A stretch of 49,440 bases of DNA from Acidobacteriota bacterium (GTDB lineage: Bacteria > Acidobacteriota > Blastocatellia > Pyrinomonadales > Pyrinomonadaceae): positions 1-49,440 of the forward strand of contig QHXG01000166.1 in NCBI GenBank assembly GCA_003222845.1, given 5' to 3'. How positions within the stretch are numbered: the stretch's first letter is position 1; each line of letters begins with the position of its first letter. The notes under the pieces are model-generated. The model did no database searches, was not told the origin of the DNA, and was given only the letters and a program-made list of their open reading frames with translations. Of this stretch, positions 3,783-22,835 are shown piece after piece. Made by a program: the position numbers and the translations under genes.

Positions 3783-5186
3783 TCAGGAGCGCCTCTCGAT
3801 CCTAACTTGAATCCCTTCCTTGGGCCGCAGCGACATCGCCGGTAGGATCGACACCGGATGATCCCGAACAAGTTCAAGGCGAAACTTCTGCCCCATGGTC
3901 GCCAGCACCAGAATAATTTCCATCATCGCGAACGAAGCCCCGATGCAAGCCCTCGGGCCGTGGCCGAAAGGAAAGTACGCGTACTTTGGCAAGCGCCCGA
4001 TGAATTCATCAGTCCATCGCTCCGGCTTGAATTCCAAAGGCTCGTCGTAGAAGCGCGGATCGCGCTGCGTGGCCCACTGAAACATGAATACCTGCGTTCC
4101 TTTGGGTATGCGATAGCCGCCGATCTCGCAATCATCAATCGCCTCGCGACCGAGACCGTAGGCGGGCGGATAGAGCCGCAACGATTCTTTCGCGATTTGT
4201 TCGGTATAGCGTAGCCGGGGAAGATCGGTCATTTCGGGTTTGCGATCGCCCAGCACCTCATCCAACTCCGCGTGAAATTTCTCTTCCGCTTCGCGATGTT
4301 TGCCGATTAGATACCACGCCCACGCCAACGTTAGCGCGGTCGTTTCGTGGCCCGCAAGAAACAATGTAATCACTTCGTCGCGTAGTTGGCGATCGCTCAT
4401 CTGACTGCCGTCTTCGTCGTGCGCCGCCAGCAGCATTGAAAGCAAGTCGCCCTCGTCTCTTTCGGTCGCTCTTCGGTCCGCGATGATGCGATAGACGATT
4501 TTGTCTATTTTCGCGGCCAAGGCGTGGAAACGGAAATGATAGGGCGTCGGCAGACGATTGTTCAGAATCCATTTCAAAGTTGCCTGCGACGCGAATGGCT
4601 TCACCAGTTCTTTGAGAGTTGTACCGACCTCATCCACATCGTTCGACACATCGGCGCTGAACAGACAACGGACGACGATTTCCAGCGTAAGCCGCATCAT
4701 GTCTCGATGAATGTCGCGCGTTTCGCCTTCTCGCCATGATGAAATCAGTCGCTGGGTATACTCGACCATGGTACTCGCGTACGTCGCGATTCGGTCGCGA
4801 TGGAAAGCGGGCTGCGACAGACGGCGCTGGCGCTTCCACTCTTCGCCCTGGCTCGTCACCAAACCGTTGCCGACCAATCGTTGAAAGAAATTAGAGCGCA
4901 GCGACATTGACTTGATGAAGTTCTTCGAATTCGTGGAGAGCACGTACTCGATGTCGTTGGGATGATAAAGAAAAAGCGCGGGCACGTAGAGAAAACGCAT
5001 CCACACCACATCGCCATGGTCGCGCGCGCAGCGCTCGATGAAACCGAGCGAGTCGCGATTGAACTCGCGCATGACGCCCATGATCGGCGAGCCCTTCGGG
5101 CCGGGGGGACGCGAGGATCTCACGGTTCTTGTAGGACGTTTAATCAGAGTCGCATTCATTTGATTTTCGCTCAGTCGGAGCGACAT
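3783..5186 (-). CDS. cytochrome P450
   Basis: 467 aa. Heme-thiolate loop 'FPFGHGPRACIGASFA' (FxxGxRxCxG), I-helix 'LAGHETT', and ExxR 'ESLR'. Confidence 0.9.
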   Translation of the reverse strand: MSLRLSENQMNATLIKRPTRTVRSSRPPGPKGSPIMGVMREFNRDSLGFIERCARDHGDVVWMRFLYVPALFLYHPNDIEYVLSTNSKNFIKSMSLRSNFFQRLVGNGLVTSQGEEWKRQRRLSQPAFHRDRIATYASTMVEYTQRLISSWREGETRDIHRDMMRLTLEIVVRCLFSADVSNDVDEVGTTLKELVKPFASQATLKWILNNRLPTPYHFRFHALAAKIDKIVYRIIADRRATERDEGDLLSMLLAAHDEDGSQMSDRQLRDEVITLFLAGHETTALTLAWAWYLIGKHREAEEKFHAELDEVLGDRKPEMTDLPRLRYTEQIAKESLRLYPPAYGLGREAIDDCEIGGYRIPKGTQVFMFQWATQRDPRFYDEPLEFKPERWTDEFIGRLPKYAYFPFGHGPRACIGASFAMMEIILVLATMGQKFRLELVRDHPVSILPAMSLRPKEGIQVRIERRS

Positions 5187-6098: not shown

Positions 6099-8042
6099 TC
6101 ATGGCTTCGAAGGCATCTTCTCTTCGTTTGATTTCATGTTCCCGTGCATTCCGTGCATCTTTCCCATCTCCATCTTGCGGGGACGGATTCGGAAAAACAG
6201 ACGCCACGAAACAGGATGGTTGCCGTAGAACTGATCGAGCACGGGAGGCTTTGAATAGAACGTGAGATCGCTTCCGAAGCCCATCGAGAGTCTGTCCGAC
6301 TTCCAAATGTCTCGGACGCCGCCGAAGGTATAAGCGCCGATGCGAAAGCTGGGATGGTCCTGCTTTATTCCCAGCTTGGCGCGCTCTGCCGGACGCAATA
6401 GATCGTCTTTGTCCACCAGTTCCAGCCGTGTGTACAGATAATTCCTGTCGAGGAAATTGACTGTGGACTCGGCTGTATAGCCATTTAGGTTTCCAACCTT
6501 ATCCGGACTATTAAGATGGTTGCGGCCCCAGATGACGCTCGTGGCCCAGTTGCCTCGATTGAATGGCTTGTTGTAACTGATGGACGCCGTAGTGCGGCGC
6601 ACATCGCCGGACTCTAACGTCTCTGGATGTCTGAGAAATCCGTAGCTCACTTGCATTGACCAGTTATTGTTTGGCTCAAACGAGAATCGCGCCGCACGAG
6701 AGTTCCATGGATGGGCCTCGAAGTTGTAACGATTCTCGTCCGGCTCTCTGCCGTTGAAGATCGAGCCTTCCACCTTGAACCAGCGATAGGTGAAGCCCGT
6801 CGTGAAAACGCCAAAACTGATGTGAGTGGAATCCTGAAGGTGATGCGACAGCGCCGCCGATGGATTCTCCGAGGCCGAAGCGCGATGCATGAATGCAGTT
6901 GGCCCAAGCGCCGGCTCGCCCGGATAGCCAAGATAAGTGAACCAGGTTCCGCGTTCGCCCAGCGCGACCGTGTACTGCGCCGACAGCTCCATCCAAAGAT
7001 CGTGCGGGTGCTGGCGATCGACTAGCGGCTGGCCCTTGAAAGTCTCTCCGGTTTGGAAAAGTAACGGCGAGCCTCCGCGAGCAAAAGTAAACGGCTCAAA
7101 ACTAAACATGCCGCGCAATTGCAGGGTCCCGTTGCCGAGTTTGTGAAAGGCCATCGGCATAAACCAGTTGACTGATTCGAATTTCGTGGTTCCTCGTGGT
7201 CCCCCTTGTGAGTTGATGCCGATGACTGCATTGTAGTGAAGCATCAAGAGCCATTTGCCCGCGATTTTATCAACCATGTGCATAGGCGATGAGGTGGGCT
7301 GCCAGGAAGTCCCAGATCCCATCTGTCCAAGATTCATCACATTGGCTTCACTGGCCCCGACTCGCACGCCCATACCTTCGCCAGACATCACCATTAGCGG
7401 CCCCATGTTCATATTCATTCCGCCCATGTCCATGCCGGGCATTTGACCCATCGGACTTGCTGATGGACTCGCTCCGGGCATCGGCATATTCATTTCCATC
7501 TTCGGTTGCGGAGAAGCTTGTGGATTTGGGGATGCTGACGGCATTTGCATACCGGGCATGTTCATCTCCATCTTCTGCGGCGATGCTGATGGCGATGGAC
7601 TTGTCTGCGGCATATTCATTCCCGGCATGTTCATTTGTTGCGGCGAAGGCTTAGGCGTCGGTGACTTTTTAGTCGCTGGCATTTCCATTCCGGGCATCTT
7701 CATTCCCGGCATATTGCCCATTTGATGTTTCGTGGTTGGCTTTTTTCGCGTAGTCCGATTCTTTCGCCGGGTATGTTTGTGCATTCCAGACATATTCATT
7801 CCGGGCATGTTCATGCCAGGCATGTTGGCCATGTTGTGTTTCTTTTCCGGCTTTCCTTTTTTGGTCGCGGTTCTTTTCTTTCGGCTCTTGGGTTTGCTCT
7901 TGCTCATGTTCATTCCACGCATGTTCTGCATGCCTTGGCCTTGAGCGATAGTACTGTCAGTTGAAGTAAGTACTAAGCCGGAAAAAATTATTGCGCTTAA
8001 CCCAACTATACGGACGGAAGCGCCAAAACCTGACCTCTTCAT
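6099..8042 (-). CDS. Met-rich outer-membrane beta-barrel-like protein (CopB/PcoB-like in concept, family not recognised)
   Basis: 647 aa. After a signal peptide comes a ~200-aa low-complexity region with about 44 Met in MPGMNM/MEMNM repeats, interspersed with Lys/Arg and Ser/Pro tracts. A ~400-aa Gly/aromatic-rich domain follows, then a Met/His tail 'MEMGKMHGMHGNM'. AAGGGGG SD lies before the ATG. Confidence 0.7.
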   Translation of the reverse strand: MKRSGFGASVRIVGLSAIIFSGLVLTSTDSTIAQGQGMQNMRGMNMSKSKPKSRKKRTATKKGKPEKKHNMANMPGMNMPGMNMSGMHKHTRRKNRTTRKKPTTKHQMGNMPGMKMPGMEMPATKKSPTPKPSPQQMNMPGMNMPQTSPSPSASPQKMEMNMPGMQMPSASPNPQASPQPKMEMNMPMPGASPSASPMGQMPGMDMGGMNMNMGPLMVMSGEGMGVRVGASEANVMNLGQMGSGTSWQPTSSPMHMVDKIAGKWLLMLHYNAVIGINSQGGPRGTTKFESVNWFMPMAFHKLGNGTLQLRGMFSFEPFTFARGGSPLLFQTGETFKGQPLVDRQHPHDLWMELSAQYTVALGERGTWFTYLGYPGEPALGPTAFMHRASASENPSAALSHHLQDSTHISFGVFTTGFTYRWFKVEGSIFNGREPDENRYNFEAHPWNSRAARFSFEPNNNWSMQVSYGFLRHPETLESGDVRRTTASISYNKPFNRGNWATSVIWGRNHLNSPDKVGNLNGYTAESTVNFLDRNYLYTRLELVDKDDLLRPAERAKLGIKQDHPSFRIGAYTFGGVRDIWKSDRLSMGFGSDLTFYSKPPVLDQFYGNHPVSWRLFFRIRPRKMEMGKMHGMHGNMKSNEEKMPSKP

Positions 8043-8145
8043 AATTCCCCCTTTGAACCTCTTCGCATAAATAAAGAAAGCTGACGAGAACGCGCACGAA
8101 GGCGCGCGTCCGCGTAAATCAGTTAGCGACGTTCAAATTAGGGAA

Positions 8146-8682
8146 CTAAATTCTGAAGACGTTGATTAGAACGTAGCGGGGGAACGAATTGCCCGGTGGC
8201 CCGTGTTCCAACGGTGTAATGGGAACGAGAGCGGAAGGCGAAGCCATTGCAAAGTCTGCCGGCGGCGCGTTTGTCTCAACCAATCGCTTCGAAGGATCAA
8301 CTGCGACGACGGTCGCGGTTACTGATATTGGCTGTGAATGCATCAAGCAATGAGGACAAGCTTCACCAGGATGATCCAAGGCATCTGCGTCCGCATTCGA
8401 ATCATTCGCCCCGTCTGTCTGGGCAACGGGGGCATCCGTGTCTCCCTGGGCGTTGTCCATAGATTCCATTTGCATGTCCGGCATATCCATGCCACACGTT
8501 CCCGCGTGTGATTCCAGTGATATCGGCTGATGTGCGGAATGTTTGAAGCTGCGAACGTGATTCTGAGTGAAGTGGGGGCAAAAGGAGGCTAACAGCATGT
8601 TGCCCCACGCGCTGGAAAGCAACGCAATAACGATGATAAGGGTAAACAACACCCGCTTTCCCACCGTTGCCATTGTTCGCAT
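8146..8682 (-). CDS. N-terminally anchored Cys/His/Met-rich protein, putative metal-binding, no family recognised
   Basis: 178 aa with one N-terminal hydrophobic helix and the motifs 'CPHF', 'HAGTCGMDMPDMQMESM' and 'CPHCLMHS'. Same strand as the Met-rich barrel gene and directly upstream of it. Confidence 0.6.
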   Translation of the reverse strand: MRTMATVGKRVLFTLIIVIALLSSAWGNMLLASFCPHFTQNHVRSFKHSAHQPISLESHAGTCGMDMPDMQMESMDNAQGDTDAPVAQTDGANDSNADADALDHPGEACPHCLMHSQPISVTATVVAVDPSKRLVETNAPPADFAMASPSALVPITPLEHGPPGNSFPRYVLINVFRI

Positions 8683-8872
8683 GCTAAAGTTTAAGGTCGT
8701 GGACCTACTCTAACACGCAACAACTTAAGCAACCAAGGACAGCGGGCCTGAAGACTTAACTCTTCTTCGCTGGCGCAGAATTGATTGACTCTCTCGCTCG
8801 CTACTTGCGAGCAAGGAAATCGCAGAAGCCACGGCGCGCAACGGTTTGGTCTGACGCGGGCTCGTCGAATGG

Positions 8873-9061
8873 CTACATTTTCATCTTTTTCTTACAGCAG
8901 GTCGCGTTTTTCTTTTTGCAACAGGCCTTACTATGGTTCTTCCCACAGCACGACTTCGCTTTTCCCGCGGCCGCCGGAGTATTGGCCAGGGCTACGGAGG
9001 AAGCTGCCATTAGCGCCGCCGCGCAGACAAGGCTCATTGCAACTGCTTTGATTTTTCTCAT
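8873..9061 (-). CDS. exported Cys-doublet/Lys-rich mini-protein (metallothionein-like)
   Basis: The start is moved to the second ATG (9059-9061), because AGGAG lies 9 nt upstream of it while the first ATG abuts the SD. The 62-aa product has signal peptide 'MRKIKAVAMSLVCAAALMAASSVALA' and then '..KSCCGKNHSKACCKKKNATCCKKKMKM'. Confidence 0.65.
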   Translation of the reverse strand: MRKIKAVAMSLVCAAALMAASSVALANTPAAAGKAKSCCGKNHSKACCKKKNATCCKKKMKM

Positions 9062-9228
9062 TTCGCGCATCTCCTAGTAAAAACTTGGTGAAAAACAGTT
9101 CGGAAGTGACAGTGAAACCCGCGACAGCTGGTTGTCTTGCGACTCCTCATGAACCGTCCTGTTCACTGACATTGGCGGGAGTCTACCGCGAGGCGGTTCG
9201 GATGTCGAGGTTTTTTTGGTCTGCTGGA

Positions 9229-9258
9229 GGTGATCTAAATCACACAAATTAGATCACC
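9229..9258. promoter_or_regulatory. 10-bp perfect inverted repeat GGTGATCTAA-N10-TTAGATCACC between the two CC-peptide genes (operator or hairpin candidate)
   Basis: 9229-9238 is the reverse complement of 9249-9258. There is no U-tract on the minus-strand side, so it is not a canonical terminator. Confidence 0.35.
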
Positions 9259-9311
9259 AACGTTGGACCAGTGTGGCAATCATACACTAGCTTTGCCTGA
9301 CTACCGGCTAA

Positions 9312-9539
9312 CTACTGCTTCGGCATCGGGCACGACTTTCCGCAGCAACACTCGCCCTTCGCTTTGTCCTTGCAGCAGGCGTGGTTTTTCTTCTTGCAGC
9401 AAGTCATCCGTTTTTTGCAACAGCCCTTCATCGCGCAACACGACTTGGCGTAAACCAGATTCGTACCGAAGGTCGCAGACGCGGCCATCAACGTCGCGAC
9501 GCAGGCAAGACTGAGTGCAACTGCTTTGACTCTTCTCAT
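9312..9539 (-). CDS. exported Cys-doublet/Lys-rich mini-protein (paralog of 8873-9061)
   Basis: 75 aa with AGGAGA SD. Signal peptide 'MRRVKAVALSLACVATLMAASATF..' is homologous to the paralog. The mature part is 'KSCCAMKGCCKKRMTCCKKKNHACCKDKAKGECCCGKSCPMPKQ' (12 Cys, 12 Lys, no aromatics). Confidence 0.7.
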   Translation of the reverse strand: MRRVKAVALSLACVATLMAASATFGTNLVYAKSCCAMKGCCKKRMTCCKKKNHACCKDKAKGECCCGKSCPMPKQ

Positions 9540-9555
9540 TTCAGGTCTCCTGTGG

Positions 9556-9578
9556 TGAGTTGCAGAAATAGCAACTCA
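9556..9578. promoter_or_regulatory. 8-bp perfect inverted repeat TGAGTTGC-N7-GCAACTCA abutting the SD of the CC-peptide gene
   Basis: 9556-9563 is the reverse complement of 9571-9578. It lies within about 20 nt upstream of the AGGAGA SD on the minus strand. Confidence 0.35.
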
Positions 9579-9732
9579 GGAAATAGGTTGTTTCAAAGCC
9601 GGCTAACCGAAATATCGAACCGGAGTCTAACTCGAAGCGGTGATTTTGTCGAGAAATTTCTGGAGGTTTATGCCAATGTTTTGTTTGGTGTTGAAGCAAT
9701 TTGAGACTCTGTTCCCCATACGCTGTCGCAAC

Positions 9733-10470
9733 TCAGCCTGACAATTTCTTCACGCGCGGCGGTTCGTATTGCTCGCCGTATTCCGGGTACTCGATCGTTT
9801 TGATCGATCCGGGCCGCGTGTCGTCGGTAAGAAGTTCCAGCGCGTCGCGCAAGACTTGCTTCTGCAATTCGCGCATGCCGGGGCGGCCCAAGCTGTTTCC
9901 CACCTTGAAGCCTTTGGGATAGAGAGCGCGCGGCGGTCGCATCTGCGCCGAGACTTCCGGGCTGACCGTAATCAGCACCGTCGGGATGCCTTTCATTTCA
10001 ATTTCGCGTTGGACCGCCACGACCGTGCGGTGACAGACGTTCGGTCAACCACCCGTGAGCACGACCGCATCGGCGCGCGAGGTTTTGTCGATATCGTTGG
10101 CAATTTCGCGCGCCGTGCCTTCATACATGGCTTTCAATTGCATCGTGTAGCCCATATAGCCGATGTGCTTTTTTGCGATGCCACCGATGAAACCTTCCGC
10201 TTCCAAATCGCGCAGCACATCGATGGGAAATACGACGTTGATGTCCTGATCGGCGTCGGTGTGATCGTAGTGGTGATGCGTCACCATCAACTGTGATGAA
10301 TCAACATCGGGCAAGATTTCCCGATACGTCAGGTCGCCAAGTTCGTCGGCAATATTGAAGGGCTCTTGATCTTTTAAATGAACTCCCCCGGCAGTCACGA
10401 TCGCAAGCGTGCTCTTCGATAGCTCACGCTCAAATGGCGTGAAGGGAACGCATTTTCTCGAGATGGTCAT
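9733..10470 (-). CDS. GrdB-family (glycine/sarcosine/betaine/D-proline reductase selenoprotein B-like) selenoprotein with in-frame UGA
   Basis: Track ORFs 10045-10470 and 9733-10020 are in the same frame, separated only by TGA (10045-10047) and 8 sense codons. The read-through gives '..AVVLTGG-U-PNVCHRTVVAVQREIEMKGIPTVLITVS..MRPPRALY..GRP', 245 aa, matching my recollection of short GrdB-like proteins with U/C before 'PN.C'. A GC stem-loop candidate ACCGC-N9-GCGGU lies at 10013-10031. Confidence 0.75.
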
Positions 10471-10768: not shown

Positions 10769-11233
10769 TTACAGCTTCCTCAAGACTTCAAACAAATCTT
10801 CATTGTCCGGCTGATCCGAAATGTTGTGGATGTCTTTGTAGGCGAGCTTGCCTTCCTTATCCACAATGAACAGCGCGCGTTCGGAGATTCCATCGTTAGC
10901 GCGGTAAGCGCCGTAAGCTTTAGCGACTTCGCCTTTGGGATGAAAGTCGCTTAGCAGGTCATAGGAAAGCCCGCCGAGACTCTTGGCCCACGCGCTGTTG
11001 CACGGGACGCTGTCAACTGAAATGCCCAGGACCTGAGCATCATAGCCCTTGAAGCGTTCGAGGTCAGCCTCGTACGCGGGCATCTGCGCCGTTCAAACCG
11101 GTGTCCAGGCCAACGGATAAAACGCCAGCACCACATTTTTCTGGCCTCGGAAATCCGAGAGCTTCACCTTCTTACCTTTTTCGAGATTACTCCCGAGTTC
11201 AAAGTCCGGAGCCACGTCTCCAACTTCAGGCAT
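10769..11233 (-). CDS. peroxiredoxin (AhpC/TSA/BCP-type) with selenocysteine at the peroxidatic position
   Basis: The track shows only the C-terminal 104 aa. Extending in frame across TGA (11093-11095) to ATG 11231-11233 gives '[13 protein letters not shown]...[40 protein letters not shown]', the canonical PxxxTxxC motif with U for C. Hairpin CGUACGAGG-cuga-CCUCGAACG lies at 11055-11076, 16 nt 3' of the UGA. Confidence 0.8.
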
Positions 11234-11370: not shown

Positions 11371-11853
11371 TCAGAGGCGTTCGGGCGAAGAAAGCCGCCG
11401 AGATTTTCTCCGTCGCCAACCTTCGCGACATCGAGTGACGTGCTGTGGATGTTGAATCTCGGTAACATACGTTAATGCCTTTGTTAGGTTTTCATAACGG
11501 GAGGCGATTTGTTGCGGTGTGATTTTTGTCAGATCAGGAGCGAGATGTTCCCTTACGAACTCTAGACGATCTTTCCATTTATCAAGTAGTCCCACCTCTC
11601 GAAGCTCGTTGTGAATGTCCTCGAGTCGCTCCAAGATCGGATTAGTAAGTGGAGGCAAAATCGAATTAGTAATAACGTGAATATGATCAGGCATGATGAC
11701 ATAGGCATACAAGGCGAACTGACCGGATCGTCTTGCTTCGTCGAGAGCTCGACAGGTAACCAGTTTGATTTCGTCGGTACGGAAAACTGGTAAACGATCT
11801 TTAGCCACTGACGTGAGATAGAAGCAAGGAGAGTCTCGGGAGATTACATGCAT
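11371..11853 (-). CDS. IS200/RayT-like Y1 (HUH) transposase N-terminal domain with atypical C-terminus, probably degenerate
   Basis: 160 aa. 'FYLTSVAKDRLPVF...YAYVIMPDHIHVI' is the HUH (HIH) motif of Y1 transposases and REP-associated tyrosine transposases. I see no recognisable catalytic-Tyr helix. The 3' end runs into a repeat copy (11374-11440). Confidence 0.6.
   Translation of the reverse strand: MHVISRDSPCFYLTSVAKDRLPVFRTDEIKLVTCRALDEARRSGQFALYAYVIMPDHIHVITNSILPPLTNPILERLEDIHNELREVGLLDKWKDRLEFVREHLAPDLTKITPQQIASRYENLTKALTYVTEIQHPQHVTRCREGWRRRKSRRLSSPERL
11374..11440. repeat. ~65-bp dispersed repeat, copy 1 (direct with 12101-12162)
   Basis: 'gaggcgttcgggcgaagaaagcc...tttctccgtcgccaaccttcgcgacatcgagtgac' aligns with 12101-12162 at roughly 75% identity with one 4-nt gap. 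Confidence 0.7.
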
Positions 11854-21830: not shown

Positions 21831-22835
21831 TTGGCGCAATCAAAACCAGAACAGTCGCGTTTGATTATTCACGATCTCGCGCGGCGCAACGGGCGCACTG
21901 AGTTTGCCAGAGACGTCCGAAGCGGACTCTCATCTTATCCGAAGCAACTTTTCCCAAAGTATCTTTACGATGAGCTTGGCTCGCGTTTGTTTGAAGCGAT
22001 CTGTGAGGTTGACGAGTACTACCTTACTCGGGCGGAAGACAAAATCCTGACGAGCTACGCAGACGAAATCGTGCGCGCCATCCCCAACTGCAAAACGTTG
22101 ATCGAGCTCGGGAGTGGCAGCGCGCAGAAAACGCGTAAGATCATCGAAGCGCTGATTCGAGGCTGCGGCGAATTGCTTTTCATTCCGGTTGACATCTCGG
22201 CCACGGCCCTCGAAAAGAGTTCGCATGCGCTGCTGGATTCGTACCCGAATTTGAAAATCAACGCCTATGCAGCCGACTACTTTGAGGCTCTGGAAGCCTT
22301 GCCCCCACTCGGCCCCGATCCGGCGCTGGTACTGTTTCTTGGATCGAACATCGGCAACTTCGAGCCGGACGAAGCAGTTGATTTTCTAAGTGCTATTCGC
22401 CGCGTGCTTCGCCGGCAGGATGCTTTGCTCCTGGGCGCAGACCTGAAGAAGGACGCGCGGACGCTGGAAGCGGCTTATGACGACTCGCTGGGAGTAACGC
22501 GCGCCTTCATCGTCAACGAGTTGGAGCGCATCAATCGTGAACTGGATGCCAACTTTGATCTGTGGGCCTTTGGTCTCAGATCGCTTTACAACGAATCAGC
22601 CGGGCGCGTTGAAGTCTATCTTGAGAGTTTGCGCTCGCAAGATATCAACATTCGCGGGTTGGATATGTCCATCAGCTTCGACGCCGGCGAAAGAATCCAC
22701 ATGGAAAACTCTTATAAGTTTGACTTGAACGGCCTTAAACTACTCGGGCGGCGAAGTGGATTCGATTTGGAACGCACTTGGCTGGATGAAGAAAAACTAT
22801 TCAGCAGTAATCTCTTTCGCGTCCCGGAAGCTTGA
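21831..22835 (+). CDS. egtD: L-histidine N-alpha-methyltransferase (EgtD/EanA family)
   Basis: 334 aa. 'DVRSGLSSYPKQLFPKYLYDELGSRLFEAICEVDEYYLTRAE', 'ELGSGSAQKTR', 'FIPVDIS' and 'LFLGSNIGNF' are EgtD hallmarks. Confidence 0.8.
   Translation: MAQSKPEQSRLIIHDLARRNGRTEFARDVRSGLSSYPKQLFPKYLYDELGSRLFEAICEVDEYYLTRAEDKILTSYADEIVRAIPNCKTLIELGSGSAQKTRKIIEALIRGCGELLFIPVDISATALEKSSHALLDSYPNLKINAYAADYFEALEALPPLGPDPALVLFLGSNIGNFEPDEAVDFLSAIRRVLRRQDALLLGADLKKDARTLEAAYDDSLGVTRAFIVNELERINRELDANFDLWAFGLRSLYNESAGRVEVYLESLRSQDINIRGLDMSISFDAGERIHMENSYKFDLNGLKLLGRRSGFDLERTWLDEEKLFSSNLFRVPEA

Follow-up and report, generated by a model that had tools for sequence, protein, structure and literature searches.

Lysine-rich cysteine-cluster peptides with Sec-type signals in Pyrinomonadaceae: candidate periplasmic metal buffers encoded upstream of a predicted outer-membrane barrel

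The bufferins (Buf1/DUF2282 and Buf2, the '6/12Cys' type) and the oxazolins, which carry EGKCG repeats, are Sec-exported periplasmic copper chelators that give protection against the metal (PMC11626156, PMC12452194). CutF and CruR (DUF2946) are copper-sensing upstream open reading frames (ORFs) with a signal peptide, a Cys motif and a C-terminal Pro motif, followed by a stem-loop that masks the next gene's ribosome-binding site (PMC9973294, PMC9426467). In PcoB, a disordered, poorly conserved Met/His-rich N-terminal domain precedes the barrel and is needed for copper resistance (PMC12509749); motifs of SilE have also been described (PMC11904771). Here we analysed a stretch of 49,440 nt from a Pyrinomonadaceae bacterium of the phylum Acidobacteriota (contig QHXG01000166.1, positions 1–49,440; hereafter the window), in which two consecutive minus-strand genes, A and B, encode small Cys-rich peptides. 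Judged from sequence and gene context, these are best explained as Sec-exported, intrinsically disordered Cys-cluster peptides, the Lys-rich members of an unannotated Blastocatellia family.

Genes A and B and their family

Only two ORFs in the window contained at least three CC doublets. Both had been named in a preliminary description of this DNA and both were present as described, each with its own Shine–Dalgarno (SD) sequence:

9312–9539, minus strand: gene A, 75 aa, consisting of the signal peptide MRRVKAVALSLACVATLMAASATFGTNLVYA and a 44-aa mature part
8873–9061, minus strand: gene B, 62 aa, consisting of the signal peptide MRKIKAVAMSLVCAAALMAASSVALA and a 36-aa mature part

The composition reported earlier for mature A (after VYA) was reproduced, with 12 Cys, 12 Lys and zero Phe, Tyr or Trp in 44 residues. 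Its C-terminal end is the family signature CCCGKSCPM, the last residues being SCPMPKQ. Mature B contained 6 Cys as three CC pairs (CC-x7-CC-x6-CC) and 11 Lys, with CCKKKMKM as the C-terminal end. The net charge was +11 for each of the two mature peptides. The ORF of B as listed spans 8873–9070; its SD, AGGAGA at 9070–9075, directly adjoins the first ATG and precedes the second by 8 nt. Since this spacing fits the second ATG and every homologue of B (P0003–P0007) begins with MRK(I/V)KAV, the start was placed at 9061. By inspection, the signal peptides of A and B were of the canonical Sec type that had been proposed for them, with an n-region (MRR or MRK), an h-region of ~17 residues and AXA-type cleavage sites between VYA and K in A and between ALA and N in B. 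From this layout we infer export of both peptides to the periplasm.

A and B are real genes, with purifying selection on both. The ratio of nonsynonymous to synonymous substitution rates (dN/dS) of A, calculated between the window and the related locus L001, was 0.18 for the annotated frame (0.12 for its mature part), and exceeded 1 over the same region when it was read in the frames of long plus-strand ORFs. In the alignment of A, every Cys was invariant and one Lys was replaced by Arg via a change from AAA to CGG. For B, dN/dS was 0.06–0.39 (four loci). The plus-strand ORF 9381–9704, which overlaps A, was rejected as a true gene on its dN/dS of >1. The plus-strand ORF 8781–9077, which overlaps B, was also set aside as a gene; the frame comparison of dN/dS covered the 9381–9704 ORF. 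The exact A protein occurred on 24 metagenome contigs from several collections, unnamed each time, and had the homologues P0001 and P0002.

The paralogy of A and B, likewise proposed earlier, was supported by a direct repeat of 65 nt over the signal-peptide region (80% identical), by the protein alignment and by a 42-nt repeat in the promoter regions (71% identical). The peptide genes turn over quickly. A-type copies were frameshifted or truncated in L003 (10214–10519), L004 (7999–8133) and L005 (1601–1783), and L001 contained A and lacked B. In L002 (around 480–520), a deletion of ~140 bp removed the B promoter together with half of a palindrome that lies between A and B in the window.

Searches with full-length and mature A and B against Pfam, NCBIfam and PDB sequences, including hidden Markov model (HMM) searches to E=10, returned no family match. 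Weak matches to NICE-1, SO_0444 and phospholipase A2 were rejected as compositional. Word-indexed protein searches with A and B returned close relatives only (at least 77% identity), and searches over 5.8 billion and 1.84 billion proteins were nearly empty. The family came out by synteny and motif scan only: related loci were retrieved via the large downstream gene, which encodes a predicted barrel protein, and their six-frame translations were scanned. Of the homologue search suggested in the preliminary description, the protein and profile part yielded close relatives only, and the six-frame scan of syntenic loci exposed the family. The protein databases miss it partly because gene calling overlooked at least one of the peptides: in L104, the public gene caller passed over a four-repeat Cys peptide (7560–7982) and reported an antisense ORF of 46 aa in its place.

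Family members are small ORFs of 84–160 aa in total, with a Sec-type signal peptide typically ending in ...G[LF]AQ and 7–20 Cys, in odd as well as even totals, arranged in runs of 2–5. The repeated unit is CC(CC)-x0-4-SC-x-M (e.g. CCCCGGDSCDMK), present in one to four or more copies and often followed by MKHD-type spacers of Met, His, Asp and Lys; it replaces the CC-x5-7-CC/Lys spacing that had been regarded as the defining feature. Among 13,134 six-frame segments, the motif CC.{0,4}[SE]C.[MIL] occurred in 34 such ORFs and in 2 unrelated segments. By sequence comparison, A is clearly homologous to the C-type peptides of the family (BLASTP E=8e-9 with the 96-aa C-type peptide of L023), which are 95–98 aa long and follow the pattern EACCDMxxCCKDxxMSCCKKK...NAHACCKGK...CCCKGDSCPMPNKK. 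Most members are Asp/His/Met-rich with variable C-terminal tails, and the Lys-rich CC form of A and B is, on this comparison, a lineage-specific derivative. A lipoprotein reading of A and B was rejected: the conserved Cys13 lies inside the h-region with hydrophobic residues continuing after it, position -1 is occupied by Val in B and one C-type peptide (L009), and GDSC-type relatives have no Cys at this position.

A Cys-cluster ORF with a signal peptide was found upstream of the barrel gene, on the same strand, in 28 of the 67 related loci with enough upstream sequence; none of the loci with a barrel protein of only 45–55% identity had a Cys peptide. The source organisms were soil Pyrinomonadaceae/Blastocatellia (Acidobacteriota), and the members present in databases carry only the name 'hypothetical protein'. 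Neither the motif strings nor 'periplasmic metallothionein' retrieved a paper when the literature was searched.

Promoters, leaders and cassette partners

A sigma-70-like consensus scan covering 7900–9800 detected exactly two sites, both on the minus strand and one upstream of each peptide gene. Together with the repeats around A and B, the elements are:

9624–9652, minus strand: promoter-like site of A, TCGACA-17 nt-TAGACT, followed by a leader of ~80 nt
9557–9577, minus strand: hairpin in the A leader, 7-bp stem and 7-nt loop, fold z = -2.0
9229–9258, no strand: inverted repeat with the arms GGTGATCTAA and TTAGATCACC, perfect over 10 nt, with a 10-nt loop
9180–9208, minus strand: promoter-like site of B, TCGACA-17 nt-TAGACT, followed by a leader of ~115 nt

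The hexamers of the A site were conserved in L001 and L002, and an equivalent TGGACA-17 nt-TAGACT upstream of B was conserved in L003 and L005. The −35 hexamer of the A promoter is overlapped by an imperfect 16-bp palindrome, TCCAGAAATTTCTCGA (9649–9664), a possible operator that was conserved in L002 and nearly so, with one mismatch, in L001. The leader hairpin sits 5 nt upstream of the A SD (AGGAGA, 9546–9551), and a flanking CCU can pair with the AGG of this SD; in L001, the stem was kept and the loop changed. The A ribosome-binding site, ACAGGAGAC, equals that of the C-type peptide genes. The inverted repeat at 9229–9258 is located between the A stop codon and the B −35 hexamer, with 9 of its 10 stem positions kept in L001 and half of it deleted in L002. 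It could form a transcript-end hairpin or serve as an operator. It was rejected as a canonical intrinsic terminator since no T-run follows it. Both peptides had previously been assigned a nearby perfect palindrome; this was correct for 9229–9258, and the one placed at 9556–9578 proved to be the imperfect leader hairpin. Rather than features belonging to the peptides, the two are better seen as a hairpin in the A leader (9557–9577) and, at 9229–9258, an element directly upstream of the B −35 hexamer. Scanning the window for Rfam families and tRNAs returned no matches; the conserved leaders of A and B are therefore not a known riboswitch.

On the minus strand of the window, A and B are followed by a 178-aa gene and the barrel gene:

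8146–8682, minus strand: 178-aa exported Cys/His/Met protein ('type I'), from a family alignment
8043–8148, minus strand: intergenic helix predicted to sequester an SD, fold z = -3.66
6099–8042, minus strand: 647-aa barrel protein with a signal peptide, a disordered Met-rich N-terminal part of ~230 aa and a 413-aa domain

The 178-aa protein contains FCPH, CC, a Met-rich stretch, P-x-E-x-C-x-HC-x-x-HS, EHGPPG and the C-terminal RYVLINVFRI, and the C-terminus of the type I family is strongly conserved (EH-x-PPG...RHVLISVFRI). A location upstream of the barrel gene on its strand, in company with an exported Cys protein that ends in VFRI or VFLI, is proposed as a mark of the Cys-peptide family, and A and B in the window show it. 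DUF2946 was matched by 3 of 11 type I family members (best E 1.6e-4; window copy E 2.3). The features of the gene fit the CutF-like criteria of PMC9973294, making it a distant CutF/DUF2946-like candidate for a metal-sensing upstream ORF. From its stop codon onward, UAGUUCCCUAAUUUGAAC can pair with GUUCAAAGGGGGAAUU, the ribosome-binding site of the barrel gene. This arrangement of stop codon and anti-SD was found in 10 of 10 related loci, with flanking sequence differing between lineages, and the mean duplex energy in these loci was -15.9 kcal/mol, compared with -8.9 for shuffles. RNAalifold did not recover the long-range helix from the intergenic regions between type I and barrel genes because of poor alignment, and direct duplex energies were used in its place.

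The N-terminal part of the barrel protein consists of MNMPGM repeats with Lys/Pro-rich stretches. The protein had no match in Pfam (including CopB) or among PDB sequences, and its 413-aa domain had at least 8000 homologues in metagenomes and metagenome-assembled genomes (MAGs), all 'hypothetical' and without a Pfam family. An AlphaFold2 model of the domain was all-beta with about 20 strands, at modest confidence (predicted local distance difference test score of 55). The model matched mostly outer-membrane beta-barrel proteins in Foldseek, chiefly porins, with template modelling scores mostly of 0.24–0.45. The domain is thus predicted to be a porin-like outer-membrane beta-barrel. A distant barrel homologue (42% identity) was encoded in L014 (3–1052), a Fimbriimonadaceae MAG from another phylum, where it is preceded by two proteins, one with CC/CCC and HGPPG motifs and the other YHS/TRASH-like by eye. 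The logic of the cassette may extend beyond Acidobacteriota.

The usual gene order in related loci was a type II ORF, the Cys peptide and the barrel gene. Type II ORFs (L003 11085–11195; also in L005, L022, L023, L033, L046, L053, L060, L104 and others) follow the pattern W-x-AGAGC...SHDCC...CPL...LPNRGHTYLRCCVFLI and have no Pfam match; a profile-profile comparison of type I with type II proteins gave a weak match over the C-terminal 14 residues. Right after the type II stop codon, a conserved UAG-A(G/A)(A/U)CUGCCUG (UAG-AGAUCUGCCUG) is complementary to the peptide SD ACAGGAGA in most of about 24 loci. Because of this complementarity, the peptide gene would be the gated output of a CutF-like ORF and not the gate. 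A CutF-like role fits both the 178-aa gene of the window and the type II ORF of the relatives.

In three related loci, genes of copper type were found beside the barrel gene. In L015 these encoded a cytochrome c, PCYCGC, DUF305 and a YHS/HMBD P-type ATPase; in L102, an HMBD ATPase; and in L104, the locus that also has the four-repeat Cys peptide, a YHS/HMBD ATPase and a thioredoxin/cupredoxin protein. The ATPases are classed as P1B-ATPases. The context of the cassette is metal-related, the metal probably being copper.

Further genes were observed around the cassette. Upstream of A, a GrdB-like gene (9733–10470, minus strand; C-terminal part of PF07355) has an in-frame TGA (10045–10047) in VVLTGG-U-PNVCH and probably encodes a selenoprotein; it was split by gene callers into pieces of 141 aa and 81–88 aa and was syntenic in L003–L006 and L104. 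A peroxiredoxin (AhpC/TSA) gene (10769–11233, minus strand) has an in-frame TGA (11093–11095) at the peroxidatic position and probably encodes a selenocysteine peroxiredoxin; in relatives, it was split into two called genes. Just upstream of this pair, 11371–11853 (minus strand) gave a weak match to an IS200-like Y1 transposase (E 4e-4). Elsewhere, 21831–22835 (plus strand) matched Methyltransf_33, a histidine-specific, EgtD-like S-adenosylmethionine methyltransferase (E 1e-103), which suggests ergothioneine-type thiol biosynthesis in the organism.

Proposed role and alternative explanations

In Cox17, MerT/MerF and ArsD, vicinal Cys pairs serve as ligands of Cu(I), Hg(II) and As(III). From the composition and context of A and B we infer a thiolate-cluster nature, and we give roughly an even chance to their being unmodified periplasmic thiolate peptides that would bind Cu(I) and buffer it or hand it over. 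Cleavage of the signal peptide would leave peptides of 36–44 residues in the periplasm, where vicinal thiolates, aided by Met and His, would capture a thiophilic metal, most likely Cu(I). The peptides would then either buffer the metal at high capacity or take part in its hand-over together with the co-encoded barrel and its Met-rich tail, and Lys would neutralise the negative charge of the metal-thiolate clusters, as in metallothioneins. In most relatives, the upstream CutF-like ORF would gate translation of the peptide via the anti-SD after its stop codon; in the window, A and B would be under their own promoters rather than such a gate. A bolder proposal is that the family represents true periplasmic metallothioneins, that is, unmodified disordered poly-Cys peptides with runs of 2–5 Cys, CutF-like-gated and part of a three-part module with a Met-tailed porin. 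We regard this as tenable at somewhat below even probability.

Several observations weigh against a copper-buffering role for A and B as members of this family. A profile built from A and B and searched against 1.84 billion representative proteins retrieved two already known clusters only. B has no SC-x-M signature and shares only the CC-Lys part, so that it is a family member solely as the paralogue of A. The link from the Lys-rich and C-type peptides to the Asp-rich GDSC-type members consists of motif, architecture and position, with a pairwise BLASTP E of 0.038. The peptides are dispensable: numerous loci possess the same barrel gene without them, A copies are degraded in L003 and L005, and L001 has no B. 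The scanned ORFs of the window included no ATPase or multicopper oxidase, and the assignment to copper comes from the neighbours in related loci. Finally, the periplasm is oxidising, and many of the vicinal Cys might be oxidised there.

It is unlikely, in our assessment, that A and B are instead cis-acting metal-sensing leader peptides of the CutF/CruR/CopL type, whose released product has no function of its own. Such leaders resemble A and B in the Sec signal, the Cys motif, the small size and the same-strand position upstream of metal-related genes (PMC9973294, PMC9426467), and the C-terminus of both A and the C-type peptides is SCPMP-x-K, which forms a short basic tail with Pro. Translational coupling of the C-type peptide to the barrel gene also appears to exist in some loci: in L003 and L023, the sequence after the C-type stop codon pairs with the ribosome-binding site or start region of the barrel gene. 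However, A and B gave no match to the DUF2946 HMM up to E=10, their last 15 residues contained neither a PP nor a RAPP motif, and the tails of the family are highly variable. A has a promoter to itself, and after it come hairpins and then the B promoter; A is therefore no leader for a downstream gene, and the B stop codon lies 190 nt from the next start without an adjacent anti-SD. The sensor role is, moreover, already taken by the type I and II ORFs, with their conserved C-termini and the anti-SD after the stop, and in loci with these ORFs it is the peptide gene that is regulated. A sensor would not need as many as 6–20 Cys or a number of repeats that varies. Because the copy number of the unit varies, the Cys totals (7–20) are odd or even and the C-termini are not conserved, a fixed disulfide scaffold or an arrest peptide is disfavoured; these same features would favour a capacity-type binder over a leader peptide.

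Slightly less probable still is that A and B are precursors of RiPPs (ribosomally synthesized peptides that are modified post-translationally) like the bufferins and oxazolins, with Cys modified (e.g. to thiooxazoles) before Sec export by an enzyme encoded elsewhere. Those peptides, which chelate copper in the periplasm, combine Sec signals with Cys motifs that recur (EGKCG repeats; 6 or 12 Cys), and some of their precursor genes lie apart from the biosynthetic cluster (PMC11626156, PMC12452194). The Cys counts of B (6) and A (12) agree with this, and a cytochrome P450 gene is located nearby (3783–5186). Yet neither MNIO/DUF692 nor DUF2063 was found among the 30 scanned ORFs of the window or in the precomputed Pfam annotation of L003, L015, L100, L102 and L104. 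A and B matched neither DUF2282 nor any other Pfam or NCBIfam family and have no EGKCG motif, and their adjacent-Cys runs (2–5 in the family) are unlike the isolated Cys of known MNIO substrates. The P450 gene is not conserved beside the cassette (L015, L102, L104); a P450-made RiPP was rejected since the gene is not syntenic elsewhere and the peptides are without the aromatic residues that P450 cross-linking uses. Least probable, with only a slim chance, is a different exported function as a cationic antimicrobial, an envelope-binding peptide or a periplasmic thiol redox buffer. The +11 charge of each mature peptide and a composition like that of cationic Cys-rich peptides would suit such a function, as would the syntenic genes for the selenocysteine peroxiredoxin and GrdB-like selenoprotein just upstream. 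Most members of the family are, however, Asp/His/Met-rich and non-cationic, so that the charge is not a conserved property; a dedicated exporter or immunity gene is absent, a Sec signal alone reaches only the periplasm in a diderm, and the selenoprotein pair also lies beside cassettes without A or B types.

If the peptides bind metal as proposed under the copper-buffering role, they would be the first metal buffers of the bacterial periplasm described as ribosomal, thiolate-rich and independent of enzymes, in a compartment thought hostile to free thiols. A and B also mark an uncharacterised cassette that combines a CutF-like gate with a Cys peptide and a Met-tailed porin and is unannotated in the databases searched and common among the sampled Blastocatellia/Pyrinomonadaceae loci (28 of 67).

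Comparison with known systems

CutF, CruR and CopL are, like A and B, small exported Cys proteins encoded upstream of copper-homeostasis genes (PMC9973294, PMC9426467), but A and B do not have the DUF2946 signature or the C-terminal Pro-rich/RAPP arrest motif. The product of 6099–8042 resembles PcoB/CopB as a predicted outer-membrane barrel preceded by a disordered Met-rich N-terminus, and differs in that the barrel is larger (about 20 strands), is general-porin-like in Foldseek and has no multicopper oxidase neighbour.

Metallothioneins (SmtA/BmtA, MymT and the eukaryotic proteins) are likewise small, rich in Cys and Lys and free of aromatic residues, and metal-thiolate cluster chemistry would be expected for A and B as well. 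Mammalian metallothionein has CC doublets in a KKSCCSCC stretch. The bacterial metallothioneins known to us are cytoplasmic and have no signal peptides, those of the SmtA/BmtA type having a Cys/His zinc-finger-like fold, whereas A and B carry signal peptides, match no metallothionein family HMM and differ in motif and genomic context. Csp1 is a folded, Tat-exported four-helix bundle with numerous Cys thiolates; SilE and PcoE, by comparison, are disordered and use Met and His. A and B would resemble all of these in being exported and binding Cu(I) or Ag(I) at high capacity. In contrast to the Cys-lined four-helix bundle of Csp (~120 aa), mature A and B are 36–44 aa long and have no Pfam match; SilE and PcoE, with Met/His rather than Cys ligands, have no sequence match to A or B.

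The claim in the preliminary description that A and B form a new class is tentative. No known family was matched; as exported thiol-based copper binders, they would have precedents in Csp1 and in the bufferins and oxazolins, which that description did not mention. The remainder of that interpretation, namely export (by inspection), conservation, paralogy and a metal-related context, was upheld. Bufferins and oxazolins appear to be the closest functional analogues of A and B, being small, with a Sec signal peptide, conserved or repeated Cys motifs and a variable number of repeats. They differ in that an MNIO (DUF692) encoded next to them, with its DUF2063 partner, turns their Cys into thiooxazoles. 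Genes for these two were not found among the 30 scanned ORFs of the window or in the five annotated related loci. The motif of the A/B family is a run of adjacent Cys followed by SC-x-M, and its partners are a CutF-like ORF and a Met-rich barrel.

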